A stretch of DNA of 64,000 bases from Promethearchaeota archaeon (lineage in GTDB: Archaea > Asgardarchaeota > Lokiarchaeia > Sigyniarchaeales > SOKP01): NCBI GenBank assembly GCA_048941185.1, contig JBHLNW010000003.1, positions 31,238 to 95,237 of the forward strand, in the 5' to 3' direction. Positions 16,036 to 64,000 of this stretch are shown here, in pieces. Within the stretch, counting starts at the first letter, position 1; each line of letters opens with the position of its first letter. Both the position numbers and the translations under genes were made by a program. The notes under the pieces were generated by a model that was not told the origin of the DNA, searched no databases, and saw only the letters and a list, made by a program, of their open reading frames with translations.

Positions 16036-17208
16036 TTGGAAAAATCTTTTGAAGAAAGACCCGAAAGATCGGTAGATGAAGAAGTTAAAAAATTCAAAGA
16101 ATACATCCAAGAGAGAAGAGTGAAATGGACTGAAGAAGAAAAGATTGAATTGGAAACAGATAAATTTGATAACGATGAAAGCCTTAAAAATACTAATTCG
16201 ATCTTTATAGAAATGCCACATCACATAATTACAAGTGAAATATCCGATTATGTTGATAATGGTTATAATATAATTGGTTTCGATGAAAGTTCAAATGTCT
16301 TAAGTGGTACATATGCTAAGCTAGCATCTTTTAAATTTGGAGAATGTCAAATTATATTTAAAAATGGTAAGTATCATATAGAAAAAATAATGTACAAACC
16401 GATTAGTACATATATCGAAGATAATGAACATAAACTTATAATTTATCAAACTGTAATTGAGAATTTTATAAAAACTATAAGAAGGGACTTTTATATAAAG
16501 AATTTAAAAAATAAAGTAGATAAACTAGTTAATTGGTATAAATCAACCTATCAGCAAAAAATAAAGCAACATATTGATGCACACGACTTTTATTATCCAA
16601 CCATAGGACATGTAATAGATAGAATTAGAACAGCTGATGAAATATTAAAGTCTCTAGTTAGAATTAAAGATGTAAGTAATTGGGGGAAAAATGAAAATGT
16701 AGTATTTCTTGGTGATGGAATACAAATGTTTCGTCAGCATATTTTTCCCCCTAGTGCATTTACTGAATTTTTTTATAGATTTATTGAGACTTTTGATATA
16801 AAGTATTATAGTTTTTCAAAAACCTGCCGTCTGAGGGATGCTCAAGGCAATTTTATTTTGCCTATTTGGGCAGAGATTTTACATGATAAAAATTTCTTGG
16901 TTGAATTACCAGATCTCTCAATATATACAAAGAGCAAAGCATATATAACAAAATTACAACAAAATAGTTCAGCTCTAAGGTTTGATGTTTGTGACTATTT
17001 AGATACAAAAGATGCCATCTACGCTTTAAAAAATTTAATTCCTTATTCTCCAAGAGGATACCCTTTAAGTTTAAGCGGCGCACATGAAGCAAGCACATTA
17101 CTTGTATCAGAATATAATAAATTGGAAGGTACCTTCTTAGAGCTTCAGTTCGATAAAAAAACTAAAAATTATGCACAAGTATGGAGGAAAAAGGTTTTAG
17201 GTGAATAA
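16036..17208 (+). CDS. nurA: NurA-family 5'-3' nuclease (divergent)
   Basis: IIGFDESS (canonical DGS), VFLGDG, SFSK, C-terminal GYPLSLSGAHE; lies between herA and mre11. TTG start. Confidence 0.8.
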   Translation: MEKSFEERPERSVDEEVKKFKEYIQERRVKWTEEEKIELETDKFDNDESLKNTNSIFIEMPHHIITSEISDYVDNGYNIIGFDESSNVLSGTYAKLASFKFGECQIIFKNGKYHIEKIMYKPISTYIEDNEHKLIIYQTVIENFIKTIRRDFYIKNLKNKVDKLVNWYKSTYQQKIKQHIDAHDFYYPTIGHVIDRIRTADEILKSLVRIKDVSNWGKNENVVFLGDGIQMFRQHIFPPSAFTEFFYRFIETFDIKYYSFSKTCRLRDAQGNFILPIWAEILHDKNFLVELPDLSIYTKSKAYITKLQQNSSALRFDVCDYLDTKDAIYALKNLIPYSPRGYPLSLSGAHEASTLLVSEYNKLEGTFLELQFDKKTKNYAQVWRKKVLGE

Positions 17209-17237
17209 GATTTTGAATGGGTATAATGTACTATTAA

Positions 17238-18560: not shown

Positions 18561-18566
18561 TTTTTT

Positions 18567-46654: not shown

Positions 46655-47111
46655 TGCAGGTATTCTTGATTTTAGTATGTTTTATTCTCATGGTTCTTTT
46701 CTTTATACTCCAAGACATGATAAAAGAACTTTTGTTCCTACAGAAAATGTGGGATTTTCTGATGGGAAGCCTTCTATATGTGGAGGTTCAGGTCCTCAAT
46801 ATGTTATAACCAATATTGGATATTTAGATTTTGAAGAAAATAGTAAGCGTATTAGACTTTCTTCAATTCATCCAGGAATTAATATAGATCAAGTAAACGA
46901 ATCAACCGGCTTTGAGTTAATTATACCAAACAATCTAAAAGAAACACACCCTCCCACTGAGAAAGAGCTTAAACTACTTCGAGAAAAAGTTGATCCCCTA
47001 AAAATAAGAAAATTGGAAGTTCTTGCTGGAAAGGATCGCGAAGAATTAATCAAGACTATTATTCAAAAGGAATTGGAGCTGAAATGCAAGTATCCAAAAT
47101 TACTATCATAA
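46653..47111 (+). pseudogene. 5'-truncated second copy of the CoA-transferase beta subunit 3' half
   Basis: Aligns to 41933-42409 from AAGI.DFSMFY to the stop codon. About 70% aa identity by manual alignment, a 6-codon deletion, and no N-terminal half. Confidence 0.85.
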
Positions 47112-47383: not shown

Positions 47384-50300
47384 ATGAGAAAACTATCTAG
47401 AAAAGATCTAATTGTATTTTCATTAATTTTTATATTTAGTATTCAAGGTTGGCATTCACTTAACTATGTCACTTCCTGTTATACTAGCGGGATTAGTAAT
47501 TTAACAATATCATCAGATGATCCATTCTTTGGGGATGAGCCGATTAGTGCAGATAAAAATGTTACTTTACATTTAACTGATCAATTTTCTATAAAAGGGT
47601 TAGCTCATAAGTATATTGGAAGAGTATTTCAAACTCAAATCCACTTAAAAATCTTTGATCCAAATGAAAAACTTACTTATTCGGAGATGAAATATCTCCC
47701 GCATAAAAGAAAAGTAAATTTTGAATTTAATAATATCGCATTAAGCCCTAACCTTTTTAAAGTAACAGGAATGTATAGAGTAAAGTTATACTTGACCTTT
47801 AATTGGGGTGGAATTATCAAAGTAAGCAAAATTAATACTACATACTTCAAATTAGAGCGAGAAATTGTCGATTTATCTTGTTATTTTATTGATAATATTT
47901 ATTTTCAAACTGAGACAACACCTTATCATCATGAAATTTATATCTACGGCTCAGCTGAAGAAGCTGGGGAACCTGAAAATCTTTTAATAAATGAAAATGT
48001 AAAATTGTATTGGACAGAGCCAAATGGAACAGACACTCTTGTTGGTAAATTTTCTACTAACGAATTTGGTTCATTTAACACATCAATTTCAAGAAAACAT
48101 GTATTACACTATAATTATATGAATTGCTATTTAAAATTCGAAGAGACACCCACTTACCAGCCTGCTGATAGTAGATATCCTAGCCAATTCCTAATGAAAG
48201 AAGAAGGAAATACCCATATCATTAAGAATGCAAATGAAGCTGGAATTAGTGATTTTGATGTTCCTGAATCTTATGGATTTCCATCAAGAATTACATTATC
48301 CAATAAAGAACACAGTATTTGGTCTCCAAATGGAGATGATAATGATATCGAAAATTGGAATTTCAGAATAAATCCATTTGGTAATCCAGAGCTTAATACT
48401 ATTGGATATAACGGTGAGAATACGTTTGATGGTTACGATTATTGGATATCAAATACCAATGGAATTATAAAAAATCAGAGTGGCTTTCAAATGATTGATT
48501 CTTCATATCGTAACAAAATCATCCCTTTTGATGTTGAAATTCTTTCTGGATCTATATCAGTCGAGCAAAATTTAAACGATCTAGTGATAAATAATAATGA
48601 AGGAATAAGATTCTGTCCTGAAGAGATGACTTCTTTAAATTTAACATTCTATGAAAGTAAAATCAGATATCTATTCTCATCTAATTTCTCTCAAAACCAA
48701 ATAGAGAACTTAAAATTAGCTTATTATTTTAATGTAAATGATATTCAAGAATTAAAATCTTTCTCAATTACTCTTTTTGATGGAATTCATTCTATTGATT
48801 TGATAGAGAATAGTAACAAATCACTAGATTTGGCCAAAATTATAGACATTACACAATATAATCTTGATATTTCAAGATTTTATTTAGAAGTCTTTTTTAA
48901 TTATAATAAATTAATCGGAGAGGAATCGTTATGTGATGTTCTATATTTGGAACTTAATCCTATTGATTCTTCATCAAATATTCTTAAGTGGAATGATGTT
49001 GAAGGTACTAATAATAAATCTATAAGTTTTCAATCAATAGGGGGGCTTGAGGATGACATTATTACATATCATCTAGCGAGTGAGGTATATATTCCTGATG
49101 TACCATTTTACAATTTCGAAAATTCTATCTTTTCAATAAGCTTAACTTGTGAAAAATTAGGAATATTTGAAATTGAATTAGGTCTAAATATTACTTTAGC
49201 AGAATCTGAACAAAATTTTCTTATTCCATTATGGAATTCTTTTCCTGAAAATAGAATAGATGATAAGCTCTTCTTAAGTTATGATATAACTTCATTAATC
49301 AAAGATTTACAAGAGAAACTATTTTATCTTGGCTTTTATGCAAAACTTGATGGATTAGAGTTAGGAGAAGATTTTATCTGTGATTTATTGGATATAACTC
49401 TAACAGCTGACTTTCTAAGAAAAGAAAATTCTCCCTCAGTAATTGAACACTACAATGAAGATTTTGAATATAGTGAGGAAATTTATTATCCTTACGAAGT
49501 AGATTATGATTTCGCTGCTACTGAATTATTTTTAAACAATAATATCAACGAAACACTTGACTACATGTGGGGATCCACTTACCAGCATTATATGGAAAAT
49601 ATTAATGATAGTTACTTGATAAATAACGGGAATATTCAAATTAAAGATACTAATAATGACTTAATTGATGACTACATTCTTAATCCATCTCAAATAAATG
49701 TACCTTTTGACCCGTTACCTGAAATTATTGCATTGAAGGACAACTTATCTGTAGAAGCTACCGGTGATATTAGTAAAGAGGTCTTTTTAGCAAATGACAA
49801 TTTGAACCAATCATTTTATTTTAGGCACAATAATGGTTCAATAGTTCATACTGTGACAATATCAAATTCGTTATACGAATTCTCAATTAATCAATCAAAT
49901 CAAATTCATAAGAATAATTATTCTGTTTTAGATCCTCTAAGCTACATAATTATATCATTACCAGTTAATCGTGAAATTCGCAATATAGATTTATCCTCAG
50001 GAATAATGGCTAGATTAGAATTCTTGAGAGGAAATCTTGCTCCAAAGGCAGTAGTGACTCAAGAGATATATAATTTGAATTTACAATACATAGACGAAAT
50101 TAATTTTAGTAATTATAATTATTTTGATTATAATCCAGTAGCGAATTTTGATATAAAGAGATTTACTATTCAATTTGAGGCTAATGATAATTCAACTAAA
50201 GAAGAAATTAATATCAATAATGAATATATTCATGCTATCGGAAATAATCGAGATTTTATTACATTTCGGTTATATTTTAATCCTGATGATTATATTGATT

Positions 50301-53300
50301 CAAATACTACAATATTTTTGGCAGACTATGATTATCTGAAATTTTTAAATAGGACAACAGATTTAATTCAAAATTACTTTATTGAAAATACATTTTATGA
50401 ACTAAATTACTATCCTAAATTTGAAGTTATATATACAATAATTAGTGATGATTTTAGCAAGCTTCAAGATCCAAATATATTTTATACCTTAAGTCTAGCT
50501 AAAGGTGCTTTAACAATATTTATAATGACACCTGAAGGAGATTTGCCTATAAAATATTTTAATTCATTAGATTTTGTTCAAGAAATAGGATCATTTTCAG
50601 TAAATAGTGATGACTTCTATGGTTATAATGAAATTAGCTTAAAATTTTCCTATGAGGGAGCTCTTATCTATGAAAGGTACCAAAATGGTTTTGTTTTAGA
50701 CGAACTAAAGATAAAATATTATAAATTAAATACAGATTTTAATTTCCATCCATATTCTAAGAGTTACGAGGGATATATGCTCTATCTTGATGGAACTATA
50801 TCAAATAGCAGTAATTTATATGGAATAATTGGAATTGATAATAATGTGAGTCTTTTTTCATTGATTGATTTATCTAGACAACAATTTCCAAATTATGATC
50901 CCTTTTCACATTTATTAAGATTAGACCTTACCAATCCATGTTTTGATAATGCTTATGATATTAATACTGAAATTATCTCATTACAACCATTTGAAATTAC
51001 TTTTTCTAATATTAGTTTATTTGGTGGATGGCATGAATTGAGTATTTACAAAGAAGAAAAGGCTTCTTTGCTTACATTTTTTGATTTTGGTGCTATTATC
51101 TCATTGAATTATATTGAGCTTTATTATGAATTAATTAGTGGATCAGATCAAGCAGTTGAAATAGTTAAAATAAGTACATTAATCCAACCAACCAAAGAAT
51201 GGGATAATATATTCGATTGCCAAGGAAAAGGAACAAAAGTAACTCAGGGTTGGCGAATTAAATTTAAAGAAGATTTAAATTATGGTGACGAGGTTTATGC
51301 AAGAATAATTCGAGTAGAATTTAAAATAATTAGAGGAAATGATTTTCCTGAAAAGGCTCCAATAGTTCAATCTGCTATGATATCAGCATTACGTACAAAA
51401 GTGGGAGACTTGGAAGGTATTAAACAATATAATGATGACAATGAATTAATCTTTGGATTTGTAGATGAAACAGAAAAGAGTATCGCATTTTCTTTCAAAA
51501 TTGATATACCCTCTGAAATCAAGCCCTTTATGATATTATCTCAAGATTATGCTAATTACCCTGAATTTTGTGATTTTCCTGGACTACTTTTAGAAGATTA
51601 TTCAGTTAAAATTTCTCATCCTAGTAAAAAAATAGCTAAGAGCCTAGACATTGGCCAAAGATTTAATCCTGAATTAGATGGGATTATAATCGAAGACATT
51701 AAGCAATATCTCAATGACTCAGGATGCTTTAATTTAATTTTTTATATAAAAACTGATTTTGAAATTAATTACCACTTTGATTTTCTTGCTGCTAGTTATT
51801 ACAATAATATCTCATCTCTAATGGGACTTCCTCAAATATTTCGAATGGATTTAGAACGTGCAAGTGAAATAATAGAAGTTTCTCCATCAGATGCAGATTA
51901 TTGGTCAGGATTAGGATCATACGATTTGAATGCTGCAACTAACACTGCTAGTTCAACTTTTTTGAGTTATAATACTAATGGAGATGATGCACCAATAACT
52001 CTTTCTAGAACAATGAGTGAGTTTTTTGGAAGAGATATTAAAAGTTCTGATAATGATTATAATGATCGAATAAAAATATTTACTGGTCAGGATAGAATTG
52101 ATAATTTAGTATTTCCAAATCTAATTAGTATTCGATACCCTTCTCAGAAGTCTAGTTCGATTAAATCTACTTCTTACAGTGACATTAGGATTTTTGGAAT
52201 TACACTTTATAGAAAATATCAAGCTGTCGGAAATAATGGAGAACAACAATTAAGTTTAACATATGACCTTAGTAGTCTTTACAATTCATACCCTGATTCA
52301 ATAATTAAAGTTCGTGCGAGAATAGGAGCTTATTCTTATTATGAAAGAACATCTTTATTTGGAATAAAAAGATCCATGACAACTTCAACATCTCTAGAAC
52401 TTTCGGTTTCAAGTGATAAATATTCAGGTACAAATATAATTACTAAAGAATTTCTATTGAAAAGTGATGATAAAATAACAATTACTACTAAGAAATATTA
52501 TGGATGGTGGGATAGATTTTGGTGGCCAGTAAGATATCAAGTGTTGAAGGTTTATGATCTTCGTGTAATGGTAATTAAAAAAGATCATATAATCGGAGAT
52601 TTGGAATGTGAATCAACATTACAAATTAATACAGGAACTTCTATTGATGAAATTGATTCAGCAGTTTTATCAGGGTCTTTAGAGGTTATCGCAGGGGAAT
52701 ATTTTCACAATGTATACAACTCTGGTCCTTTTAAATCAAATTTAGAAATAAAAACTTTATATTATCAATCACCATCTAATCAATGGTTAGATCTTGAATT
52801 TCCAAATATTCATAATTATGAAAGAAATCCTTACTTTAAGAAACAATATACTGATTTTGGTATACATAAAAGAGAATTTATTTTTTCAAATGATTTAATT
52901 TCTGGAGGATATAAATTTCAACTTCCTGATGATATTTTTTATGTGTTTAATGGTTATGCTACTGCTAAGCTTAAGGTGATCGTAACCTACCAACATGATC
53001 CGCGTAACCCCATTCCATTACCTTCAAATATGTTATATGCTGATTTAGATTATTATATTAGAGCACAATGGAAAAATATTGAATTGAGAATATTATTCTC
53101 AGATACAAGGTTATTAGGTGATTTATCTTATTCTGAGCACAATTTTGGATTTCATTTTGATATATCTGAACAAGATATAAAAGAAGAATTTGAAGAGGAG
53201 TTTGATCCTGCTGATGCTTGGTATTTTGGAACCTACTTTGATTTTTCAATCTATCCTCATTGGGCGAATGACCCAATAACTAAAACTACTCATTTTCATG

Positions 53301-56300
53301 ACATAGATAAATTGAAATTCAAGATGTGGTTAGGTGTTGAAAGATATTATAATAAATCTGAAAGTTCTGACACCTATATTGAAGAGATTGAACTTCCAAT
53401 CGATTATATGGAATTTCAGAATCTGGATTTGACTAAAGAATCTTTTGAGGTAATCTTTACAGAATCAGAAGATCGCGCAGCTGTTATTGACCCAAATGCT
53501 TTAAGATTAGGATCTCCTGATGTTGATAATTATTTTATATCTAAAGAGGGTTATGATTCAAAGATGATGAGATTTTATGTAAATATTACAATTAAATGGA
53601 CAAGTGCTGCTCAACTTAATACTCGAAAATGGTATGACCCATATGGTTGGAATACCAGAAAAATGATTACAATCAAAGTTTATGACCTTACGATCATTGA
53701 TATTATGAAAAAACCGGAATTTTATTCAGAGTTTAGAGATATTTATTGCCCGATTTCGATACCCCCATCAAAGAATGATATCTTTGACAGAATAACTAAT
53801 ATAAAAATTAAATTTGGTGGGAGTTTAAAGCTAAGCTCTTTTGAAATATATCATACTCTCTCAAGTACAATTGGATATCAAGTAGTAATGATGACTCAAT
53901 CGGGAGGGATTGAAATCCTTCATAAAGTTCTCTTAAAAAATTCAGTTTCTAATCAATTTGAGTTTATAATAGATATTCCCGTGTTTAAATTAGATGATAA
54001 AAATTATATTGATCTATTTATACATTTTGGTGTATTTGATTTCTACTTTTTAGGCTTATACGATGATACAGGTTATTTAAACTTGAGATTTGATCATATA
54101 TCAGTGGAGTATCTATATAGTACTGGTTTCTCAGATAGTTTTTCTGGAAATGCATACATTGATCAAGTATTTGAATATAATATTGGATTTGACTTAGATG
54201 ATGCTAATATAAGTTCAATAATAGTGAAAGGTGATATTGATTATTCTCTGCAATACATTACCATCTCTTCTAATGGAAGGATTAGTGAATATGCAAGTGA
54301 TATATTACCTAGTTTGTACATCTACAATTACTATTCTAATTCATATGAACCTATGATTTGCTATATGGAACAAACAAACTTATTTACATTTGTTATTGAT
54401 AAATATGATTATAACTTGGATTACTACTCTAAGGAAGGATATATGAAATTTATCATAGTATTAGATGGTACAAGTATTTTAGATAATATAGGGTTTAATG
54501 AATATTACTCTTATGCTCATATATTCATTAACTCTCTCGAAATTGAAATTAAAGAAGAGGGCGAAGAAAAAAATCAAAAAGTTTCATTTGAATCTATCAA
54601 ACCAAATGGAGATATATTAGAATTAGAAAATTGGGCTTTCTATAATGATATTTATACCAATGAATCAATACCATATAATTTTAGGTATGAAATTGGTATT
54701 GATGAAATTCCATCTGAAAAACAATACCTTAACGTATCATTAGCCTTTGTGAATGAATATTCTAATGGAATTCTACCGAATTATTATGCTATTCTAAATA
54801 AAAATAATGAAATAGTAGAAGGTCAACTAATTAATTATCTCATCAATAACAATAGTCAGATAATTTTTGCTGAAGTAATTATTATAATCGATCCAAATTA
54901 TAATGGAAATTACTACTTATATTGGTCTGACTTAACCAATTATGATCAATGGGAAATGGATGTAGATTTATCTAATGTTAACGAATTTTTGGGCATAATT
55001 CAGACATCAAATATACAAGATTATTTCAATTATAATCCCTATAATTTTGAGGTCAGTAAAACATTATGGAAATTAAATAAATTAGACTCTTACTTATACT
55101 CTCTATATGGTATCAACGGAGCTGCATCCCATACATTCGAATTCAATTTTGATAATCTTATATTTGATCTTAATAATATAACAGGTATTCAGTTTAAATT
55201 AATTGAAATTTCTGAATTTACTAGTAATTTCTACTTAAGGATTTTTGATTTCACTAACAAAATATTTAAAAATTATCCCATTAAAACCCGTACTGTAGAT
55301 AACTTTTATTTTAAAGAATATGAACATAAAATTGCTACTATTCACCTAGATCCTCTTGAAATTATCAGCTATTTGGCAAGAGACCTTAAATTAATCGTGG
55401 AATTGGGTTGTGAAACTCTAGAAGAATTGGATTTTGAGTGGGAAATTAACACTATGGAATTTATTATATCATATAACGAAGGGCTTAATAATGAAATAAA
55501 TGCTGAATATAAACAATATATTGCGGATCAAAATTTTCTTGATTCAATTGAATTCTACGATATCTTTAGCCAAACTGAGTTAGATGGATGGTTTGGTGAT
55601 ATAAATGATTTTAAAGTACAGAATAGTTATTTAACTAAATATCCTCCATCTCATAAAAAAAGTTGGTGGGAGGATGATTGTGACGATGATGATCACGATG
55701 ATGATCCATGTCGTTATTCATGGCGTTGTCAAAAACCATCTTACATATTGGTTGATAATTATGATGATGATTATTATGTAGATTTTCTTGTTAATATTCA
55801 AGATATTTGTTCTCATTATAAAACTGCTGAGTGGTTAGTCCACGCTAATAAAATAGATCAACGATGTAAAACGCATTATACTGGATTGCTATTTCAACTC
55901 CATGCTTATCAAAGTGCAAGCCACCATGCGAATGAACTGCATATTTGGAAGAAAGAATCCTGGGGGAATTGTTGGCGTTTTATTGATTCCATCAACGTAC
56001 CTATTCATATAGATGTAGATACATGGTATAAAATAACAACATATGTAAATAAAAGCTATATTTCTGTAAAAATTAATGGATCAGTCATTTATTCTGATTA
56101 TATCAGTCTTAATATTGATTCTGGTTATTTTGGAATCAGATCTTCCTATTATGAACAATTTTTTATAGATAATGTTATAATCAGCAAAGAGGAATTTATT
56201 GGTGAAAATATTAGGGACTATTTTGCGAGTATTGAGGTTAATATTTCAGATAATACCCACATAAAATATGGTGATTCAATAACCTCATCTTTTACAAATA

Positions 56301-59300
56301 TTCCTGATAATTATAATAGTTCTCTTAAGGATCATAAACTTAGTTTATTAGTAAATTCATCAGATGGATGGTTGATAATGGATGAAATGCTATCTAATCA
56401 AAATGGGATAACTGAATTTAAGATTGATTCCATAGATTTATCAACCTTTGATATTTTAGGTTCGCATTATACAAAGTATATTAATTACAAGTTAGAAAAT
56501 GATACTCGAGAATACTTTTTTATTGAGAATTTTGACAAGGATCTAAGTAAATGGACCTCAAATCATATTAATGATTTTACTATAGAGAATGGATATTTAG
56601 AGAAGGATGGATGTTTTGATAGAGAATCTTTTGTAGTTACTAATCCAGAACATCCAAACAATTATACTATAGCATTTGACGCAATGATGAACATTGATCC
56701 CTCTAGAGAAAAATTTGATTGGATCATTAATTCTGATGATGATTTTCATAACGGTTACATGTATAGGTTATATTCCTCAACCAGTAATGAATATCCAAAT
56801 ACATTACAGTTATATCAAAAAAAATGGGATGATGATGACGATTGTTACAAGATTCTTACCGAGATTGAAGTAAATCAGGAAATCTTTACTGGAAAATGGT
56901 ATCACTTAGAAATAGATATATCTGAAGATACTGAAAAAGTTTATCATAGAATAAGATTTAATGATGAACAAATCTTTTCATACGAATTTACTCAAGATAA
57001 ATATTATCATAGAGATTATTTTGGGTTTAGAATTTATAACACTAATCAATCAATTATTGATAACGTTCAACTATATACTGGTACGTATAACATTAAAGCT
57101 GTTGAACTAAATCCATTTACAATTGAAAATGAGAATCTAATTAAATATAAAAATGTAAAATACAATGATAATGGGATTACCCGAATTCAAGATATGGTCA
57201 TTTATCAAGAACCATATATACTTGATATTAATGATATTAGTCTGGGAGTGAATCTAAATTTCTCTTATTTATTAAATGAATTTGAAAGATATTTTGATTT
57301 AGAGAGCTACTATGGGTTGAAATTAGGTATTTTATTACCATATGATCCAATAATTTCGAGTGTTGAAGTAAGCTTATTAGATACTGAAGATAATAAAATT
57401 CAAAATGTTTTAAATTATGGTGATTTGAATGAAATTTACTCAAATCCAAATCAACATTCTGTAATTATCAATCAAACTCATATGGTCAAAACTGATGTAA
57501 CACTATCTTTTCTAGGGTTAAATGATGCCAAATTATCCTCTGCAAGATATCTAAGCATTAAAGCTAATAGATTACCCATTGAATATGGAGAATATTCTGG
57601 TAAACGAGTTGAGAATTTAATTGGAATGTGTTCTATTCAATTATTAAAACAAATAAACAACTATTCAATATCTAACTTTGATTTTGAGCAATCTTCTGGT
57701 AATACAATAGCAATTTATTATGAAGGTTCGGGTAGATTTTATTCTTCTCTAAAAATTCTAAATAATATAGTGTTTGAACGAACCAGTACCAAAATTGAAA
57801 TTTTTAATGGCCCATATTATTCAGTTAATTATGGAGGCAATTTCAAAATTCCCTTGAGAGTATTAATAGAAGAAACAAAAGCCGATGTCCCTTATCTCTC
57901 CCCCATTATTTATGGATCTTTTGTATTATTAATTGAAAAGAAAAATAAGTGGTTAACATATGGATTTGAAAAACTTAATCTTACTAATTATGAGCGTGAG
58001 GGTTTCTCTTATTATATCTGTGATATACATCCACTACTTTCTGCGGGCTTTTATGATAAAGTTAAATTACTTTGGATTGGAAATGGACTATTTAAACCAT
58101 GTGAAAGTTATTCTGAAGATTTTAATTCATTATTAGTAACCCCTTCGAAAACTAATATAAATTTAACTTTATATAACATGCAAGTAAGGTATGGTGATCC
58201 TTTTGAAGTTTCAGGTGAAATTAAAGATGAAAATGGTGATATGTTAAAAGATCTCAATTTAATTACCTATTTAAACAATTTTACTCGAAATGATTTCTCT
58301 TATTATGAAATTACTAATCTTGGGAGCTACTACACGAATTATACTTCAGAACAATTTTTATTCACATCTTATATGTATAGAGACTCATTTTTTAATTTCA
58401 CACCAATTTATGATCCATTATTTGCAAAATTCAGCTATAATGTAGATTATACAAACATCTTTCATATATTATATAAGTCCAGCAATAAGAATATAGTCTT
58501 ATCAATATCATTGGAATATAATAATTCTTTTAGTATTTGTAAAGATATTAGAATTACAACTCTAGATAAATGGATCGATTTATACATAGATACTCAACCA
58601 GATGATTATCCAAGCGGAGATTATATACTGACTAATTATTCTATTAAAATATTATCCTTACGCGACCAAGAGATTGAATTTTGTATTAAAGATATTAAGC
58701 TCGAACATTTTACTCCTATATATCTACAAATAAATACGCCTCAAGGTTGGAGAAATCTTGCAGTAACTACAGTTGAGATAAAAGATTTAGATACATCTGA
58801 ATTTAAATTTAAGCTATTTTCAGATTCTGAAAATTACATACTAAATAACATTTTTAGAACATTTCTATATGATGAACCCTTATATAATAATAGTTTACCT
58901 TCTGGAGATTATTTATGTAGAATTTATTTCCCTGAATTAAATGATTTCTATCAACCATCCTCAGACAATTTCTTTTTAAGAATTAATCCGCTTGAAACGG
59001 CAATATATTATCAACATGATGGTAATGAAGAAATTTCAAAAGATGGATTTTATAATAAAAGAACATATGAAGACACTTCAATATTTGCATTAGAACAGGG
59101 TAAACCTTATACTTTTGTTGATTTAGGTTGGACTTGGGGGGATAATAAAACAGTTAATTTTATGCTTTCTACAAAAGATTCGACAGGATTAAACGGACTC
59201 CCTAATAAGCCATTATGGTTTCAAATTGGTATTGTTCCTAACTCTTATCATGGTTTAGATCACAGAAGTTATTTGGCAGACTATTATCCAATGACTAGAA

Positions 59301-62300
59301 ACATTCGAACTGGTGAGATGCTAGTTAATGTCCACTTTATTCAGGATAAATATGGTAGACCAATTTTGTATGATTATTATGATTTAGAGAAAGAAGCAAG
59401 AAGATTCTATGGTCCTTTATTATGGCAAGTTCACTGGACAAATGAGGTAGGAATTGTTGCATTTAATCTTAGTATTACTTATAAACTGTTTAATTATTTG
59501 AGTAGGATCTTTTCAACAAGAGATCTCCCAAATATCGAAAAACATCTCTATATACGGGTTTTCTACAAAAATTTCTTTACTTGGGATGATATGATACTGC
59601 CAATTAATGATAAATTCCATGGTAATGAACCAATCCTCTGTTCCTTTGAAGAAAATCAACGTAAAGAAGACTTCATATTTAACTCCTATGACGCAGATAT
59701 AATAAAACAAGAACTTAAAAATGTAATCTATTATGATGGAATCTATTCAAGTAGTTATGCTGAAGGATATATTGACGTCTCTTTAGAAGGATTAACACTA
59801 GAGGGAAATTATATGGAGGTTACTTTAACCGGTGGAGAGAGAGATCGTTTATCATTTCTTTGTCAACTTAATGAAACTCAAAGAGATGAGTTAGGAAATA
59901 CAGTTCCAGAAGGGAAGTTATTAAATAATAATTGGAATATGCTAGGTAATGATATCGTCAAAGCATATTTCTTTATAATGAATCCCTCTATGACAAAAGT
60001 TCTTGTAGGAGCTCGTGATTCAAATCCAATGCCAGCTACTATAGATCCTATTACGGGTTTAATTAGTTTTGAAATGTCTTATCAAACTGCAGTTATGGAA
60101 GCATGGGAAAACATCATTCCAGGATATTATAAAGTAGTGTGTATTGTGCAAGAATCTGTTTATTATAAAGCAACATCAACTTATTTTACGATGTTGGTAA
60201 AAAGTCCTTATACCTTCAATTTTGCTGAACCTTCCACTAGTTATGATTTTACATTAAATTTTGCAGAACAGTCCGAAGTATTTGTAGAAAATATGATCAA
60301 TGATGAAATATACTCCAATTTTACATATACTAACGTATATCCAACTTTAAATGGAACAATTTGGATGGATCCATCTGATTATTCAGACGGAGCTACAGCA
60401 ATAATTCTTATTAATAATTTTCCCGTCTATAAAAGAATCGTATACCCAAATGAATCTTATTACGTCAACATTCCTCTCGAAGTTTTTGCAAATTTTGAGA
60501 TATTTAATATTACCTTAAGAACTTATAGCAATGAGAAAAAACTAATAAATTATGATATTGATGACCCATGGGAATCCACTAATATTGATGATCGTATTCA
60601 TTTTGATCTCTATATTACTAATGCTACAATAGATAATCCATATGAAGGAAGGGGTTTGATTGATGTTAATATAACTAATGTAGTAAAAAATAATGTCAAT
60701 TTTGAAACCTATGAAGGTAATTCTATAGTGCAATTAAGTCATATCGTGGAGGATGATATAAACGGTACTGCATTAAAAATAAAAAAATCATTTACATCAA
60801 TATTCGGTCAATATCATCATGGCTTGTTGTTATATCCTGAAGGAAAAGAATATATAACTGAAGTGAGTGTTAATCTAGTTGAATGGGATCCGTCTTTCAA
60901 AATTACCGAAATTAATGAATTAACTGAGAGTATATTACCATATCAACTAAAAGTTGGTTGGCAATATAATTTAGAAGATAATTTTCTTGAAAGTGTAAGA
61001 AAAGCACAATTTAATGATCCTTTAAATGATTCTCGAGTTGCTGAAGGAATCAGAATCTTCACAATGAAGAATTTTAGAACTTATTTACTATTTAAACATG
61101 CTTATTTACCATATGAGGGTTTCATAGAAGGTAAATTATTTTTATCACGACAATTAGGAACTACAGAAAGATTAAATATTTCTATCGTTTCAATTATTGG
61201 TACTACTATTAGCAAAGTATTATGGAGTCAAGAAATTGACTACACCAACAGCGATCTCATAAATTTCACATTTGAGACATTTAATATATTTCAATCTGAA
61301 TACCAAGATATAGCAGTAGTTATAGAATCTCTAAACATTGCAGCTCCAATTGCGGTGTACCTTTATGATGCAAGAATAAGAGGATTTGAAGATATCCTAT
61401 CTGTTAGTACACATTTACCTTATGGAAGAGCAGCACTTTTCTCCAGTAATTTTCTTTATTATTTTCTAAGAAATCAAAATGAAATTGGCTTAACAAGTGA
61501 GGATAAAGAAGTTTTAATAAGAGTTGAAGATCGTAAGGAAGAACAAAAGTTAGGTTTTCAATCATTTTTTGATCTTACTGAAGTATTAGAGATTTATGAA
61601 AATGTTGAGGTTGATCAATTTCACCATGATCCACAAGATGAAAGTTCAGATAATGGTTATATTACACCACATTCCAATGAACAAAGATATCTATTCTCTG
61701 AAGATGAGGATGAAGGAATATTTGTTAGAACTCAAATCTTTGGAATGAGAAATGTTAAAACGACTCAATGTCACTGTGGATATGTTGTAATGTATAAAAC
61801 AGAGGATCCTAATGATCCTTTTGATGAAAATATTGAATTAAAGAAAAGAAAAGTTTCCTTTTTTGTGCGCCCTCAAAAATGGAGTATAAAACCTCAAAAT
61901 CTTGAGATAACTTTTAATGACATTAATAATAGATTTAATATCTTTCTAGATGGAGATAGGATTCCTATTGATCAAGGTGTGGATTCAAATTATGTTAATA
62001 TAGAATATTCGCATGCTGTTGATCAGAGCAATGATAAGATTTGGAATAAGTGTAATTTTGATGAATTTGATAATAATTGGAATAAATCAGATTTAACTGA
62101 TGTTTTATTTGATATATATGATCATCAGTGTTACTTTACAACTTCTCATTTTGAAAGATCTGGAGGGTCAAATATTTGCAAACATAATGTCATAGATTTT
62201 TATCCTGATATCAGTGATTGGTCATCTTTTGATTTATTTCAAACTGAAATACAGGTAAATGACTCTTCTATAGTTAAAAACATAATAATACGAATTTATG

Positions 62301-64000
62301 ATGACCTAACAGGAATTCATGAAAAAACCTTTCCAATTCAAGGAGATTTTTCGCCAACTTTCATAAAATGGGATTTAACAAATCTTAACGCTCAGAATCT
62401 ATTGAAGAATGTTCAGAGAGTTGATTTAATAATAAATCCTGATTTCTATATATTAGCTGATCGAGAATTAGATAAATTAGATATTTATTTTGAAACAAGT
62501 GGTGTAGTATTACAACATAAAGACAATTACATTGAGTTTTTGGTCCAATTTGAAGGTGAAACAGAAGAAATTTTGATTACTCCCCACTTACTACGTTCTG
62601 TTTTTGAAACAAAATCCATTATAAGTTCCTTCAAGATTAATGGGCAGAAAGAAATTGAAAAGATTGCAATCCAAGGTAGTTCTGGAATGAAAATGAAATT
62701 ATATTCAATTAATATTTTTCAGAATCGAACTATTTCAAATCCTAATGGTGGAATATACAGTTATGTAGATCATCTATATTCAATGAAATTTGATATGAAT
62801 ATGAGAAATATTTTAGATCACAATCAAATTGGAAGTAATATTGAACCCTTGATGTGGTATTACAAAGTTAATGGTTGTGTGATTAAACCAATTATAGATG
62901 AGAGCACAGAAGCGGTATATAGTGATTTTGACAATGATGGTTTTTATGACCAAATGGACTTGTATGAGGATTATAATGGAGGTGTTTATGGTGATGGTGT
63001 GAATGATCAGCATTCAATTGATTATGATCTTGATGGTAAATTTGATGAAATTTTCTCAAAAACATTCAGAAATCAAATTTCTTATGATAAAGAAACAGGA
63101 GCAAGAATAGAGCATAGAGAAAAAATTAGAATAATTACAAAAATCGAAAAATATGACGAAATTAACACGATTATAACAAGAACAGAAGATATATTCCAAG
63201 TTGAACTTAGAAATAATAAACCTCAACCTTATATCCGTCTAAGTAGACAATCTGTATATATTTCGAATAAACAACGCCCAGATATTATAATTACTCATGT
63301 TGATGCTTGGCGGTTGAATAGTGGTGAGGATGATTATGAGACTCATATTATTGAGGTTTGGAATCCTGAAAAACAAGCATATGACGAGGAATATTGGCAT
63401 GATTGGGCAAAAGTTATAGATATTACAATGCTAGGGGATAAGTCAGAAGAGCAATATCCCTTATTCAAAAATATACATGGAATTTGGGATAGAGGTTTTA
63501 CTAAAGTTCCATTAAATCCAGCAGTTCCTATTGCTGGATCCAATGAAGTTAATGGGAGATTTTTCTGGGTTGATAGTTATAATTTAACAACACATTCACG
63601 TGTATGGGACATGGCATTTGTTCTCGTGAATGACAGCGTTAATCAATTTTCAGGTTTAAAACATAGAAATTCAGAACTTTGTATTGCTGTTATAATTGAT
63701 TCCAATAGAGATCATGTGTATCAAATGGAAAATCTGGATATAGAAGGTGAATATTATGATCAATTTTTGCCACTATGGATGGCCTCTCCAGATAATAATC
63801 TACAAGAATTTCTTGAAAAAATAGCACATGATCATTCTTGGAATGATTGGGTAGAAAATATGCTAAAACCTGCTACTCTTGTAAAGTTAGTTGCCGAGCT
63901 TGCTATAACTTTTTTTGTTAGTGTGATAGTAACTGCAATAGCGACAGCTTGGCTTCCTGGGGGTGCGCTATTTATAGCAGGACTGATAGCATCCTTTATT
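47384..64000 (+). CDS. Giant secreted/cell-surface multidomain protein, at least 5,539 aa, running off the window end (absent from the ORF track)
   Basis: GAGGG SD, then ATG (MRKLSRKDLIVFSLIFIFSIQGW, signal-peptide-like). The same frame is open everywhere I translated and at the last base (...GGALFIAGLIASFI). The track lists no closed + ORF in this 16.6 kb, as expected if there is no stop. Beta-rich, acidic, many N-x-S/T sequons, two ConA-like domains, Ig-like segments, DxDxDG motifs. Confidence 0.92.
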   Translation, partial: MRKLSRKDLIVFSLIFIFSIQGWHSLNYVTSCYTSGISNLTISSDDPFFGDEPISADKNVTLHLTDQFSIKGLAHKYIGRVFQTQIHLKIFDPNEKLTYSEMKYLPHKRKVNFEFNNIALSPNLFKVTGMYRVKLYLTFNWGGIIKVSKINTTYFKLEREIVDLSCYFIDNIYFQTETTPYHHEIYIYGSAEEAGEPENLLINENVKLYWTEPNGTDTLVGKFSTNEFGSFNTSISRKHVLHYNYMNCYLKFEETPTYQPADSRYPSQFLMKEEGNTHIIKNANEAGISDFDVPESYGFPSRITLSNKEHSIWSPNGDDNDIENWNFRINPFGNPELNTIGYNGENTFDGYDYWISNTNGIIKNQSGFQMIDSSYRNKIIPFDVEILSGSISVEQNLNDLVINNNEGIRFCPEEMTSLNLTFYESKIRYLFSSNFSQNQIENLKLAYYFNVNDIQELKSFSITLFDGIHSIDLIENSNKSLDLAKIIDITQYNLDISRFYLEVFFNYNKLIGEESLCDVLYLELNPIDSSSNILKWNDVEGTNNKSISFQSIGGLEDDIITYHLASEVYIPDVPFYNFENSIFSISLTCEKLGIFEIELGLNITLAESEQNFLIPLWNSFPENRIDDKLFLSYDITSLIKDLQEKLFYLGFYAKLDGLELGEDFICDLLDITLTADFLRKENSPSVIEHYNEDFEYSEEIYYPYEVDYDFAATELFLNNNINETLDYMWGSTYQHYMENINDSYLINNGNIQIKDTNNDLIDDYILNPSQINVPFDPLPEIIALKDNLSVEATGDISKEVFLANDNLNQSFYFRHNNGSIVHTVTISNSLYEFSINQSNQIHKNNYSVLDPLSYIIISLPVNREIRNIDLSSGIMARLEFLRGNLAPKAVVTQEIYNLNLQYIDEINFSNYNYFDYNPVANFDIKRFTIQFEANDNSTKEEININNEYIHAIGNNRDFITFRLYFNPDDYIDSNTTIFLADYDYLKFLNRTTDLIQNYFIENTFYELNYYPKFEVIYTIISDDFSKLQDPNIFYTLSLAKGALTIFIMTPEGDLPIKYFNSLDFVQEIGSFSVNSDDFYGYNEISLKFSYEGALIYERYQNGFVLDELKIKYYKLNTDFNFHPYSKSYEGYMLYLDGTISNSSNLYGIIGIDNNVSLFSLIDLSRQQFPNYDPFSHLLRLDLTNPCFDNAYDINTEIISLQPFEITFSNISLFGGWHELSIYKEEKASLLTFFDFGAIISLNYIELYYELISGSDQAVEIVKISTLIQPTKEWDNIFDCQGKGTKVTQGWRIKFKEDLNYGDEVYARIIRVEFKIIRGNDFPEKAPIVQSAMISALRTKVGDLEGIKQYNDDNELIFGFVDETEKSIAFSFKIDIPSEIKPFMILSQDYANYPEFCDFPGLLLEDYSVKISHPSKKIAKSLDIGQRFNPELDGIIIEDIKQYLNDSGCFNLIFYIKTDFEINYHFDFLAASYYNNISSLMGLPQIFRMDLERASEIIEVSPSDADYWSGLGSYDLNAATNTASSTFLSYNTNGDDAPITLSRTMSEFFGRDIKSSDNDYNDRIKIFTGQDRIDNLVFPNLISIRYPSQKSSSIKSTSYSDIRIFGITLYRKYQAVGNNGEQQLSLTYDLSSLYNSYPDSIIKVRARIGAYSYYERTSLFGIKRSMTTSTSLELSVSSDKYSGTNIITKEFLLKSDDKITITTKKYYGWWDRFWWPVRYQVLKVYDLRVMVIKKDHIIGDLECESTLQINTGTSIDEIDSAVLSGSLEVIAGEYFHNVYNSGPFKSNLEIKTLYYQSPSNQWLDLEFPNIHNYERNPYFKKQYTDFGIHKREFIFSNDLISGGYKFQLPDDIFYVFNGYATAKLKVIVTYQHDPRNPIPLPSNMLYADLDYYIRAQWKNIELRILFSDTRLLGDLSYSEHNFGFHFDISEQDIKEEFEEEFDPADAWYFGTYFDFSIYPHWANDPITKTTHFHDIDKLKFKMWLGVERYYNKSESSDTYIEEIELPIDYMEFQNLDLTKESFEVIFTESEDRAAVIDPNALRLGSPDVDNYFISKEGYDSKMMRFYVNITIKWTSAAQLNTRKWYDPYGWNTRKMITIKVYDLTIIDIMKKPEFYSEFRDIYCPISIPPSKNDIFDRITNIKIKFGGSLKLSSFEIYHTLSSTIGYQVVMMTQSGGIEILHKVLLKNSVSNQFEFIIDIPVFKLDDKNYIDLFIHFGVFDFYFLGLYDDTGYLNLRFDHISVEYLYSTGFSDSFSGNAYIDQVFEYNIGFDLDDANISSIIVKGDIDYSLQYITISSNGRISEYASDILPSLYIYNYYSNSYEPMICYMEQTNLFTFVIDKYDYNLDYYSKEGYMKFIIVLDGTSILDNIGFNEYYSYAHIFINSLEIEIKEEGEEKNQKVSFESIKPNGDILELENWAFYNDIYTNESIPYNFRYEIGIDEIPSEKQYLNVSLAFVNEYSNGILPNYYAILNKNNEIVEGQLINYLINNNSQIIFAEVIIIIDPNYNGNYYLYWSDLTNYDQWEMDVDLSNVNEFLGIIQTSNIQDYFNYNPYNFEVSKTLWKLNKLDSYLYSLYGINGAASHTFEFNFDNLIFDLNNITGIQFKLIEISEFTSNFYLRIFDFTNKIFKNYPIKTRTVDNFYFKEYEHKIATIHLDPLEIISYLARDLKLIVELGCETLEELDFEWEINTMEFIISYNEGLNNEINAEYKQYIADQNFLDSIEFYDIFSQTELDGWFGDINDFKVQNSYLTKYPPSHKKSWWEDDCDDDDHDDDPCRYSWRCQKPSYILVDNYDDDYYVDFLVNIQDICSHYKTAEWLVHANKIDQRCKTHYTGLLFQLHAYQSASHHANELHIWKKESWGNCWRFIDSINVPIHIDVDTWYKITTYVNKSYISVKINGSVIYSDYISLNIDSGYFGIRSSYYEQFFIDNVIISKEEFIGENIRDYFASIEVNISDNTHIKYGDSITSSFTNIPDNYNSSLKDHKLSLLVNSSDGWLIMDEMLSNQNGITEFKIDSIDLSTFDILGSHYTKYINYKLENDTREYFFIENFDKDLSKWTSNHINDFTIENGYLEKDGCFDRESFVVTNPEHPNNYTIAFDAMMNIDPSREKFDWIINSDDDFHNGYMYRLYSSTSNEYPNTLQLYQKKWDDDDDCYKILTEIEVNQEIFTGKWYHLEIDISEDTEKVYHRIRFNDEQIFSYEFTQDKYYHRDYFGFRIYNTNQSIIDNVQLYTGTYNIKAVELNPFTIENENLIKYKNVKYNDNGITRIQDMVIYQEPYILDINDISLGVNLNFSYLLNEFERYFDLESYYGLKLGILLPYDPIISSVEVSLLDTEDNKIQNVLNYGDLNEIYSNPNQHSVIINQTHMVKTDVTLSFLGLNDAKLSSARYLSIKANRLPIEYGEYSGKRVENLIGMCSIQLLKQINNYSISNFDFEQSSGNTIAIYYEGSGRFYSSLKILNNIVFERTSTKIEIFNGPYYSVNYGGNFKIPLRVLIEETKADVPYLSPIIYGSFVLLIEKKNKWLTYGFEKLNLTNYEREGFSYYICDIHPLLSAGFYDKVKLLWIGNGLFKPCESYSEDFNSLLVTPSKTNINLTLYNMQVRYGDPFEVSGEIKDENGDMLKDLNLITYLNNFTRNDFSYYEITNLGSYYTNYTSEQFLFTSYMYRDSFFNFTPIYDPLFAKFSYNVDYTNIFHILYKSSNKNIVLSISLEYNNSFSICKDIRITTLDKWIDLYIDTQPDDYPSGDYILTNYSIKILSLRDQEIEFCIKDIKLEHFTPIYLQINTPQGWRNLAVTTVEIKDLDTSEFKFKLFSDSENYILNNIFRTFLYDEPLYNNSLPSGDYLCRIYFPELNDFYQPSSDNFFLRINPLETAIYYQHDGNEEISKDGFYNKRTYEDTSIFALEQGKPYTFVDLGWTWGDNKTVNFMLSTKDSTGLNGLPNKPLWFQIGIVPNSYHGLDHRSYLADYYPMTRNIRTGEMLVNVHFIQDKYGRPILYDYYDLEKEARRFYGPLLWQVHWTNEVGIVAFNLSITYKLFNYLSRIFSTRDLPNIEKHLYIRVFYKNFFTWDDMILPINDKFHGNEPILCSFEENQRKEDFIFNSYDADIIKQELKNVIYYDGIYSSSYAEGYIDVSLEGLTLEGNYMEVTLTGGERDRLSFLCQLNETQRDELGNTVPEGKLLNNNWNMLGNDIVKAYFFIMNPSMTKVLVGARDSNPMPATIDPITGLISFEMSYQTAVMEAWENIIPGYYKVVCIVQESVYYKATSTYFTMLVKSPYTFNFAEPSTSYDFTLNFAEQSEVFVENMINDEIYSNFTYTNVYPTLNGTIWMDPSDYSDGATAIILINNFPVYKRIVYPNESYYVNIPLEVFANFEIFNITLRTYSNEKKLINYDIDDPWESTNIDDRIHFDLYITNATIDNPYEGRGLIDVNITNVVKNNVNFETYEGNSIVQLSHIVEDDINGTALKIKKSFTSIFGQYHHGLLLYPEGKEYITEVSVNLVEWDPSFKITEINELTESILPYQLKVGWQYNLEDNFLESVRKAQFNDPLNDSRVAEGIRIFTMKNFRTYLLFKHAYLPYEGFIEGKLFLSRQLGTTERLNISIVSIIGTTISKVLWSQEIDYTNSDLINFTFETFNIFQSEYQDIAVVIESLNIAAPIAVYLYDARIRGFEDILSVSTHLPYGRAALFSSNFLYYFLRNQNEIGLTSEDKEVLIRVEDRKEEQKLGFQSFFDLTEVLEIYENVEVDQFHHDPQDESSDNGYITPHSNEQRYLFSEDEDEGIFVRTQIFGMRNVKTTQCHCGYVVMYKTEDPNDPFDENIELKKRKVSFFVRPQKWSIKPQNLEITFNDINNRFNIFLDGDRIPIDQGVDSNYVNIEYSHAVDQSNDKIWNKCNFDEFDNNWNKSDLTDVLFDIYDHQCYFTTSHFERSGGSNICKHNVIDFYPDISDWSSFDLFQTEIQVNDSSIVKNIIIRIYDDLTGIHEKTFPIQGDFSPTFIKWDLTNLNAQNLLKNVQRVDLIINPDFYILADRELDKLDIYFETSGVVLQHKDNYIEFLVQFEGETEEILITPHLLRSVFETKSIISSFKINGQKEIEKIAIQGSSGMKMKLYSINIFQNRTISNPNGGIYSYVDHLYSMKFDMNMRNILDHNQIGSNIEPLMWYYKVNGCVIKPIIDESTEAVYSDFDNDGFYDQMDLYEDYNGGVYGDGVNDQHSIDYDLDGKFDEIFSKTFRNQISYDKETGARIEHREKIRIITKIEKYDEINTIITRTEDIFQVELRNNKPQPYIRLSRQSVYISNKQRPDIIITHVDAWRLNSGEDDYETHIIEVWNPEKQAYDEEYWHDWAKVIDITMLGDKSEEQYPLFKNIHGIWDRGFTKVPLNPAVPIAGSNEVNGRFFWVDSYNLTTHSRVWDMAFVLVNDSVNQFSGLKHRNSELCIAVIIDSNRDHVYQMENLDIEGEYYDQFLPLWMASPDNNLQEFLEKIAHDHSWNDWVENMLKPATLVKLVAELAITFFVSVIVTAIATAWLPGGALFIAGLIASFI

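Follow-up and report, generated by a model that had tools for sequence, protein, structure and literature searches.

A single reading frame of 20,022 nucleotides (nt) in a member of the Promethearchaeota raises the question of what kind of protein it encodes, and whether giants of this kind follow a common plan. The frame begins in a window of 64,000 nt (G000:C86:31238-95237, plus strand; contig JBHLNW010000003.1 of assembly GCA_048941185.1), by which we mean the whole stretch of DNA that was analysed, and it leaves the window at its 3′ end. Positions past the window are given as virtual window coordinates, i.e., the contig C86 coordinate minus 31237. Our data point, tentatively, to a polymorphic surface effector of a conflict or recognition type that is paired with a cognate leucine-rich repeat (LRR) protein. 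The gene itself is described by three features:

47384 to virtual 67405 (C86:78621-98642), plus strand: giant gene, 6,673 amino acids (aa), 20,022 nt
47384..64000, plus strand: in-window part of the giant gene, aa 1-5539 (open reading frame listing, translation)
virtual 67403-67405, plus strand: stop codon of the giant gene (extension of the contig past the window)

An earlier note on this DNA had described one continuous frame starting at an ATG preceded by a Shine-Dalgarno sequence, encoding a secreted protein of more than 5,500 aa, hidden and missing from the track of open reading frames (ORFs). Continuity was confirmed: from the ATG at 47384 the translation gives 5,538 residues free of stops within the window, and full translation meets no in-frame stop before the frame ends at virtual 67405, 3.4 kb past the window in a contig free of any N. 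The giant size holds as well, and after extension into the contig the true length is 6,673 aa. The purine-rich sequence GAAGAGGG lies 8 nt upstream of the ATG, as had been described for the start. An alternative in-frame ATG is present at 47351, and from this position the frame is open to the window end (5,550 codons, 3′-open) in an ORF listing that allows open ends. The absence from the ORF track likely results from the frame leaving the window; once open ends are allowed, it is listed as '3open'. The word hidden does not apply, as a public collection has an identical 6,673-aa protein (P0002), called on two contigs and annotated as a hypothetical protein. A Logan call of the same protein begins at the upstream ATG and comprises 6,684 aa.

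On sequence evidence, the open frame is a real protein-coding gene. It is the longest ORF of the 3.83-Mb assembly, with a runner-up of 2,811 codons. The G+C content is 29.7% for the genome and 29.2% for the giant gene; by arithmetic from the base composition at 29.7% G+C, about 8% of random codons are stops, and an open frame of 6,673 codons is therefore excluded as a product of chance. A word-based search of 5.8 billion proteins returned a relative (P0003, 6,651 aa, annotated as a hypothetical protein of a Promethearchaeota metagenome-assembled genome) at 54% identity and 100% coverage. Searching with aa 3800-4200 brought up three more, P0017 (6,283 aa), P0018 (6,394 aa), and P0004 (5,168 aa), the last of which is probably cut, because it lies on a contig of 16,982 bp; the 'shorter' protein search with the same residues gave no match. 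The five family members are collinear over nearly their full length, with pairwise identities of 26-52%. Scans of genome and metagenome contigs for the loci of P0003, P0004, P0017, and P0018 found none.

Three other studies provide metagenome contigs that cover the gene piecewise, mostly at 95-99% identity, and an indel pair (+1/-1) 6 nt apart in those contigs keeps the frame. The pair consists of an A inserted after 58942 and a 1-nt deletion at 58948, by which two codons are altered. Half of the in-gene substitutions displayed (19 of 38; 40 displayed among 410) were synonymous, against a random expectation of 19.6%. The sequencing runs that hold the sequence are DNA only, and no RNA run is listed among them.

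Core, tails and 3′ neighbours of Asgard giants

The giant shares one region, and within it one profiled module, with other very large Asgard proteins:

58673..60634, plus strand: core region, aa 3764-4417, common to other Asgard giants
58781-59983, plus strand: profiled core module of about 400 aa, aa 3800-4200 (profile A3)

The five family members are most alike in aa 3800-4200. Within the order, weak but significant matches to this segment (25-35% identity; expectation value, E, 4e-29 to 4e-4) were found in 20 of 153 other genomes, nearly always in enormous open frames. Ten of those core matches make up the alignment A3, from which a profile was built; the motifs W[LF]QIG.VP.S, GRP..Y, YGP..W, LYIRAFY, and S.Y.EG characterise the core. 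This profile matches 29 of 399 other Asgard genomes, namely 26 of the 153 others of the order and, elsewhere in the phylum, one strongly (E 2e-105) and two marginally (E 9e-5 and 3e-4). Among the 50 matches listed, 34 are in open frames that reach 5,000 aa or more (5,235-20,619), none of these frames with two of the listed matches, and 16 are in shorter frames of 165-3,998 aa. Any core-bearing giant at all was seen in 8 of 53 genomes of the same genus. The core profile has no relative in PDB or Pfam.

The window giant has one core of about 400 aa in a frame of more than 5,000 aa, and matches the profile with E 5e-131, a value to be read with the giant itself being in the profile build. The giants of G013 (at least 11,803 aa), G032 (10,103 aa), and G171 (7,597 aa) share with it, by BLAST, only the core region (aa 3764-4417) at 24-26% identity, to which the G171 giant adds a match to aa 4636-4838; the G013 giant has two Laminin_G_3 domains above the Pfam cut-off. 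These data place the window giant in a superfamily of Asgard giants, ranging from 5,000 to more than 20,000 aa, that share the core domain. A core-bearing frame of 20,619 codons, about 62 kb, is present in a genome of the same genus (G023:C13, ~131352-148300; L025, L053).

The C-terminal part of the window giant is divided as follows:

63872 to virtual 64030, plus strand: adjacent hydrophobic helix pair, aa 5497-5549 (Kyte-Doolittle)
virtual 64352-64408, plus strand: weak hydrophobic segment, aa 5657-5675 (Kyte-Doolittle)
virtual 64700-64783, plus strand: strong hydrophobic helix, aa 5773-5800 (Kyte-Doolittle)
virtual 65519-65680, plus strand: last module common to the whole family, aa 6046-6099 (FF.L...G...I, then I.DP; family alignment)
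virtual 65681-67402, plus strand: variable C-terminal cassette, aa 6100-6673 (family alignment)

Variation is concentrated at this end in several groups of giants. In a 12-14k subfamily, six giants share 52-64% identity along the roughly 3,500 aa that follow the core. In most pairs, BLAST alignments end 540-890 aa short of the C-terminus, and a multiple alignment shows a drop in identity from 0.55-0.75 to 0.1-0.3 across the final ~600-900 aa. When the last 500 aa of 17 giants were compared, only 5 of 136 pairs were similar, and three of these five link G003, G213, and G245_77. In the window family, all members have in common the ~360 aa directly behind the helix pair, and three have in common the ~190 aa that follow; the distal tails form three types that do not match each other (P0002/P0003; P0004/P0005/P0018; P0017 alone). 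Thus, the kind of C-terminal variation among otherwise similar proteins that defines polymorphic toxins is found here.

The gene that follows the window giant is the second constituent of the proposed pair:

virtual 67493-68554, plus strand: gene for an LRR protein of 353 aa, 87 nt past the giant stop

To the downstream genes the earlier note had pointed as a check, and they proved informative: the LRR gene on the same strand is followed by a gene for a WD40 protein on the opposite strand and then by one for an 872-aa protein with Kre9/KNH immunoglobulin (Ig)-like domains. We compared 16 loci, i.e., the 3′ ends of 13 further giants together with those of the window giant, G171a, and G032 (the neighbourhoods of P0003, P0004, P0017, and P0018 are not among them). 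At nine of the 16, the gene next to the 3′ end of the giant codes for an LRR protein that is significant by Pfam. This LRR gene lies on the same strand, overlapping or at most 95 nt away, at seven loci (window, G171a, G171b, G171c, G253, G245_74, G189), and is convergent at two (G209, G242). At G032 the adjacent gene has a weak LRR match. G003, G213, and G245_77 have a small basic partner instead, homologous among the three, and this is the same trio that shares tails. An Arf-like GTPase and then a Ras-like GTPase stand at the 3′ side of the G023 giant, and the adjacent genes at G233 and G278 have no recognisable family. Matches to LRR_8 number 60-159 per genome, with several per gene; LRR adjacency by chance is unlikely, because this background is far too low for it. 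The LRR partners, including the 353-aa protein of the window, all lack a hydrophobic N-terminus, from which we infer that they are cytoplasmic.

At one locus of the superfamily, the tail and its neighbour resemble a known pair. In G171, the giant of 7,597 aa starts with a signal-like sequence and has one helix, 969 aa from its end. Its C-terminus gave a match to Toxin-deaminase (PF14424; E 8e-6, 26.5 bits vs. a cut-off of 29.6) in which the PCxxC motif is visible, and its stop codon overlaps the start of a gene in whose 520-aa product LRRs come after a SUKH-1 domain (E 8e-10).

Membrane module, ectodomain and surroundings of the window giant

The protein had been regarded as secreted or released. 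This is not simply so, because strong hydrophobic helices (aa 5497-5549 and 5773-5800) precede a C-terminal tail of about 870 aa, which is rich in K and poor in N-x-S/T sequons. Over the final 1,113 aa, K and G are abundant and a single sequon occurs, against 6.6 expected. All five family members (5/5) have the helix pair, about 900-1,150 aa from the C-terminus, and only some of them reach the threshold used at the two later segments. The giant protein is thus predicted to be anchored in the membrane by three or four spans; three spans would place the tail in the cytoplasm and four would place it outside. Most giants of the superfamily have a hydrophobic helix at a distance of 700-1,400 aa from the C-terminus. 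On inspection of the C-terminal sequence, an anchor of the PGF-CTERM or S-layer type was rejected for the window giant. AlphaFold2 modelling of aa 5474-6673 (6-row alignment) reached a mean predicted local distance difference test score (pLDDT) of 38.5, which is too low for fold comparison; the tail in this model is mostly helix, to be taken as a hint. Stand-alone proteins match parts of this region: P0006 (163 aa) matches aa 6494-6626, and P0008 (276 aa) matches approximately aa 5850-6098. They may be candidates for the orphan C-terminal cassettes that polymorphic toxin systems use in recombination.

Upstream of the helices, the following features were assigned in addition to the core:

47384..47455, plus strand: signal-peptide-like N-terminus, aa 1-24 (read from the sequence)
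55721..56278, plus strand: putative ConA-like (lectin/glucanase-fold) domain 1, approximately aa 2780-2965 (sub-threshold Pfam, hidden Markov model (HMM) self-search)
56516..57178, plus strand: putative ConA-like domain 2, approximately aa 3045-3265 (sub-threshold Pfam)
62924..63055, plus strand: two DxDxDG-type acidic loops, aa 5181-5192 and 5213-5224 (regex search, family alignment)

Several statements of the earlier note concern this part of the protein, and most of them held. The N-terminus consists of a basic stretch (MRKLSRKD) followed by a run of 12 hydrophobic residues, is similar in P0003 and P0018, and can be read as a Sec-type signal, in line with the signal-like start that had been proposed. 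The ectodomain (aa 30-5490) is acidic and rich in N, D, S, Y, F, and I; the acidic and aromatic composition that had been noted is reflected in 14.7% D+E vs. 8.2% K+R and in 15.2% Y+F+W. The many sequons are there, 71 in the ectodomain, and they represent no enrichment over composition-matched shuffles (60.3 +/- 6.7), so that sequon enrichment was discarded. The lack of tandem repeats was corroborated by zero rows from TRF and by a tblastn search of the giant against its own genome that gave the self match alone; in self-searches with chunk HMMs the sole internal match was that of the two ConA-like domains to each other. Neither repeat arrays nor Pfam repeat families that would make it a tandem-repeat adhesin of the halomucin, cadherin, Big, or RTX type were found in the giant. 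As for the beta-rich architecture, the backing is weak: AlphaFold2 modelling of aa 3040-4239 (3-row alignment) had a mean pLDDT of 35.5, too low for fold comparison, and gave mostly strand by DSSP as a hint, and in the protein atlas aa 3750-4450 lie nearest to archaeal surface proteins with Ig-like, MG2, MG4, and CarboxypepD_reg domains at 0.86-0.88, below the 0.9 counted as a match. The ectodomain is probably rich in beta-sandwiches.

The two ConA-like domains are nearly all that is recognisable by family. For domain 1, Pfam gave sub-threshold matches to DUF6250 (E 0.0034) and to the GH59 C-terminal lectin (E 0.024) at aa 2874-2934, and the public record carries a precomputed PF19763. For domain 2, the match was to 3keto-disac_hyd (E 7.7e-5, 23.2 bits vs. 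a cut-off of 26.8, aa 3049-3197). Both domains lie within the stretch best conserved with P0003 (74-80% identity). Apart from these sub-threshold ConA-clan matches, searches of the giant in Pfam returned nothing, and neither did NCBIfam, PHROGs, or phmmer and profile searches of PDB. The acidic loops are of the DxDxDG type, and we take them to be putative calcium-binding sites; the first (aa 5181-5192) is kept in 5/5 family members. As the signal-like N-terminus and an acidic, aromatic, N- and S-rich stretch precede the membrane helices, the ectodomain of about 5,470 aa, i.e., most of the protein, is probably exposed at the cell surface.

The giant gene lies in a block of DNA that close relatives lack:

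virtual 47075-72584 (C86:78312-103821): 25.5-kb block with the giant, LRR, WD40, and Kre9/KNH-Ig genes (synteny with G013)

The closest relatives found, G002 and G013, keep both flanks without the block. The flank proteins of G002 are 88-91% identical, and the G013 orthologue of the 1,281-aa protein encoded upstream is 94% identical over the part present on its contig. Nucleotide homology to G013 ends at C86:78311 and restarts at 103822, and in place of the block G013 has 2.05 kb with a gene for an AMP-binding enzyme. At the block ends, a 14-nt AT-rich repeat is all that was seen. The C-terminal 1,880 aa (aa 4794-6673) found no match in 40 relatives (24 of the same genus and 16 of the same order, G002 and G013 included), and the best-conserved 651 aa (aa 2650-3300) found none in 399 other Asgard genomes, 53 of them of the same genus. 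Because these two segments are unmatched in relatives and the block is missing from the closest two, this giant gene is, as far as sequence comparison goes, accessory and lineage-restricted. The window and the 18.6 kb downstream hold no tRNA gene, and neither integrase nor transposase was present among the neighbours scanned. The sole ParA-like gene, found next to CdhC some 9 kb downstream, is retained by relatives without the giant.

Upstream of the giant are genes for two CoA-transferase subunits, the 1,281-aa gene, and a 144-aa ORF. The 1,281-aa gene (42571-46416, plus strand) has a weak C-terminal match to CN_hydrolase; its paralogue family occurs in 45 of 53 genomes of the same genus, often in tandem arrays and with up to 12 matches per genome. 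The 144-aa ORF (46677-47111, plus strand) is a remnant of the C-terminal part of CoA-transferase B with about 66% protein identity, and G002 has an intact 293-aa paralogue at its position. The 872-aa protein (L003:8107-10725; virtual 69869-72487), whose gene closes the 25.5-kb block, has six Kre9/KNH-like Ig domains and a PPC domain. In another genome, a fragment of the core (G205:C15:19322-20065, profile positions 111-351, with two in-frame TGA) lies beside a 1,281-aa family member at 15322-19143; this may be the remains of a giant gene in surroundings resembling those of the window.

Various other genes were observed close to giants. In G171, a group II intron reverse transcriptase/maturase and an IS110-family transposase (L037:15982-19102) lie 4.8-8 kb downstream of the 7,597-aa giant, and in G032 a DDE transposase gene is located about 4-5 kb upstream of the 10,103-aa giant. 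The LRR partner of a 9,753-aa giant of G171 is followed by an 827-aa protein with SIR2_2 and TPR (L039:10972-13452); SIR2_2 and TPR are often paired in defence systems. A full-length actin gene (L041:14077-15219; Pfam Actin, E 1.5e-132) is convergent to the small partner gene of the 12,745-aa giant of G003.

Weighing the explanations

How can a constant bulk, a variable tail, and a recurrent LRR neighbour be explained together? The giant would be ordered, from its N-terminus, as signal, ectodomain, membrane module, conserved juxtamembrane stretch, and variable cassette. We propose that the constant bulk displays the giant on the cell and makes contact with a target, which is probably a glycan. 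The ~570-aa cassette at the variable C-terminus would act as an exchangeable effector, with the adjacent LRR protein as its cognate binder, in the role of immunity protein or regulator. Such a division of labour would follow the logic of polymorphic toxin/immunity pairs. Surface exposure, effector activity of the tail, LRR binding, and delivery to another cell are all predicted steps. Antagonism or partner recognition, which the earlier note had considered, is therefore a live possibility and now the one we prefer, albeit with limited confidence and as a prediction of function. Its suggestion of a link to syntrophic partners found no counterpart: nothing in the present data connects the giant to such partners, and the giant is an accessory gene.

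The known systems provide both likenesses and differences. As in CdiA, Rhs, and MafB, a large multi-domain protein with a putative N-terminal export signal combines a constant bulk with a more variable C-terminus, and a small gene lies downstream; in addition, the superfamily member in G171 has a deaminase-type signature and a SUKH-domain neighbour. SUKH immunity proteins, BURPS668_1122 deaminase toxins, and swapping of C-terminal domains are described for polymorphic toxin systems in the accessible text of PMC3482391. Unlike polymorphic toxins, the window giant lacks RHS, filamentous-haemagglutinin, or other known trafficking repeats and has no recognised toxin domain; helices stand between its bulk and its tail, and its partner is an LRR protein. 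A further difference from the bacterial systems is that the host is an archaeon with a single membrane and without a recognised delivery route. A 'general paucity' of polymorphic toxin systems in archaea was stated in the same source as far as it could be consulted (Zhang et al. 2012, PMC3482391).

Archaeal 'huge proteins' offer another comparison. According to the portion of the survey at hand (PMC11573180), archaeal proteins that exceed 5,000 aa nearly all contain Laminin_G_3, and their function is 'not understood'. The window giant is like these in its size, its archaeal origin, and in having ConA-clan domains as nearly the sole recognisable feature, and unlike them in that Laminin_G_3 is N-terminal there, whereas the ConA-like pair here lies in the middle of the protein and below Pfam cut-offs. 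In the same portion of that survey we found no mention of a shared core, a variable tail, or an LRR partner. Among archaea, the Asgard group has the most genes for more than 10,000 aa, as stated in the available section of bioRxiv 10.1101/2023.11.21.568195. The aloposons of Heimdallarchaeum, as described in the excerpt of PMC8813620, have the tandem giants Otus and Ephialtes, integrate at tRNA sites, and carry four conserved upstream genes including a MinD/ParA ATPase. The window giant resembles Otus and Ephialtes (3,000-6,000 aa) as an Asgard giant gene of patchy distribution. It departs from the aloposons, when compared with their description in that excerpt, in being a single giant without a tRNA gene and with CoA-transferases and the 1,281-aa family upstream. 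Recent transfer or an aloposon origin was rejected on the basis of G+C content, absent tRNA genes, and the lack of boundary repeats. In those parts of the literature on Asgard giant genes and archaeal polymorphic toxins that were accessible, no account of the core, the variable tail, or the LRR pairing was found, and supplementary tables may list the genes.

Considerable evidence weighs against an effector with a cognate LRR binder. The tail probably lies in the cytoplasm of the producing cell, as it follows the membrane helices, is K-rich, and has a single sequon, and in relatives with a single C-proximal helix it would be cytoplasmic; no export or delivery route for the tail is visible. Pfam recognises no toxin or enzyme domain in the tail or in those of P0017 and P0018, and the tail is unmatched by sequence in PDB, with a best score of 0.76 in the protein atlas. 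The deaminase match of G171 is below threshold, and that giant shares mainly the core with the window giant. Seven of the 16 loci have no clear LRR neighbour, and the 16 are mutually related, so that counts among them are not independent. Partner and tail do not always vary together: the LRR partners at G189 and G209 share 38% identity from end to end, and the tails there are dissimilar. Divergence, not swapping, accounts for the tails of the closest pair, P0002 and P0003, which are homologous (33% identity). Finally, LRR proteins are not among the classical immunity families in the accessible text of PMC3482391.

Several of these points would suit a receptor or adhesin, in which the ectodomain binds surfaces, glycans, or cells, the tail is cytoplasmic, and the LRR protein serves as an adaptor to signalling or the cytoskeleton, no toxin being involved. 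The composition and sequon count of the tail fit the cytoplasm, as do the helix 700-1,400 aa from the C-terminus in most giants and the hydrophilic N-termini of the LRR partners. ConA-like or Laminin_G domains in the window giant and the G013 giant, and Arf- and Ras-like GTPases and actin near some giants, are in agreement with such a role, and cultured Lokiarchaeia are reported to show 'complex surface proteins' and no S-layer in the accessible part of PMC9834061. We nevertheless regard a receptor or adhesin as somewhat unlikely, since it leaves unexplained the hypervariability of the last 500-900 aa in giants whose upstream parts are 55-64% identical, and accounts neither for the deaminase and SUKH pair of G171 nor for the patchy accessory distribution. 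In addition, the contig of the window has no GTPase gene, and the tail and the LRR protein have no domain in common. A cytoplasmic tail can be reconciled with a toxin/immunity-like pair and a hypervariable effector end if the giant is a defence sensor acting within its own cell: the surface part would detect a virus or foreign cell, and the tail would be an abortive-infection-type effector restrained by the LRR or SUKH-LRR protein, similar to a membrane-bound toxin-antitoxin. One locus with SIR2_2-TPR beside the LRR gene and another with a fragment of an AAA_15/AbiEii-type ATPase nearby are compatible with this. Searches of PHROGs and NCBIfam gave nothing at E <0.001 (PADLOC lay outside the search), the neighbours differ among loci, and we know of no precedent among defence systems for a sensor of 5,000-20,000 aa, which makes this explanation improbable.

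It is more doubtful still that the giant is cargo of an aloposon-type mobile element and is carried for the benefit of the element. The block is missing from close relatives, and two other giants have a transposase or a group II intron reverse transcriptase nearby. The locus holds a single giant rather than a tandem pair, no tRNA gene occurs in the window and 18.6 kb downstream, and the scanned neighbours include neither integrase nor transposase; the only ParA-like gene, about 9 kb off, is kept in relatives that lack the giant. The G+C content of the giant (29.2%) is close to that of the genome (29.7%), and the 14-nt repeat is all that marks the block ends. Taken together, we regard mobile-element cargo as very improbable, and an effector with a cognate LRR binder continues to be the explanation we prefer.

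A broader proposal can be put forward, although we consider it rather unlikely as it stands. Asgard archaea of this order may carry polymorphic giant surface effectors (from 5,000 to over 20,000 aa) of a class that has not been described before. In each, a constant, glycan-binding ectodomain would be organised around a core with a new fold and be followed by a membrane module and an exchangeable C-terminal effector cassette; the cassette would be matched to an LRR protein in the cytoplasm, at times a SUKH-LRR protein. Such giants would serve contact-dependent killing, kin discrimination, or partner choice where cells meet. Eukaryotes derived teneurin-type receptors from bacterial polymorphic toxins, and the proposed class would, in its logic, be an archaeal counterpart of both.

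Meaning for the Asgard archaea

The gene had already been deposited as a hypothetical protein, and what is new is how these giants are organised. Giant genes are frequent in Asgard archaea, and the literature, in the sections accessible to us, treats them as a list of oddities. They now gain structure from a core domain that has no known relative, from the hypervariability of the tail, and from an LRR gene that recurs beside them. Should the protein be merely an adhesin with a cytoplasmic adaptor, it would still provide a testable receptor-adaptor pair. If tail and LRR protein are indeed effector and cognate binder, this would be the first sizeable polymorphic-type conflict or recognition system in the archaeal lineage closest to eukaryotes. 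It would also give a name to one component of the 'complex surface proteins' that the accessible part of PMC9834061 reports on cultured Lokiarchaeia. How Asgard cells touch, choose, or fight their neighbours bears on models of eukaryogenesis.

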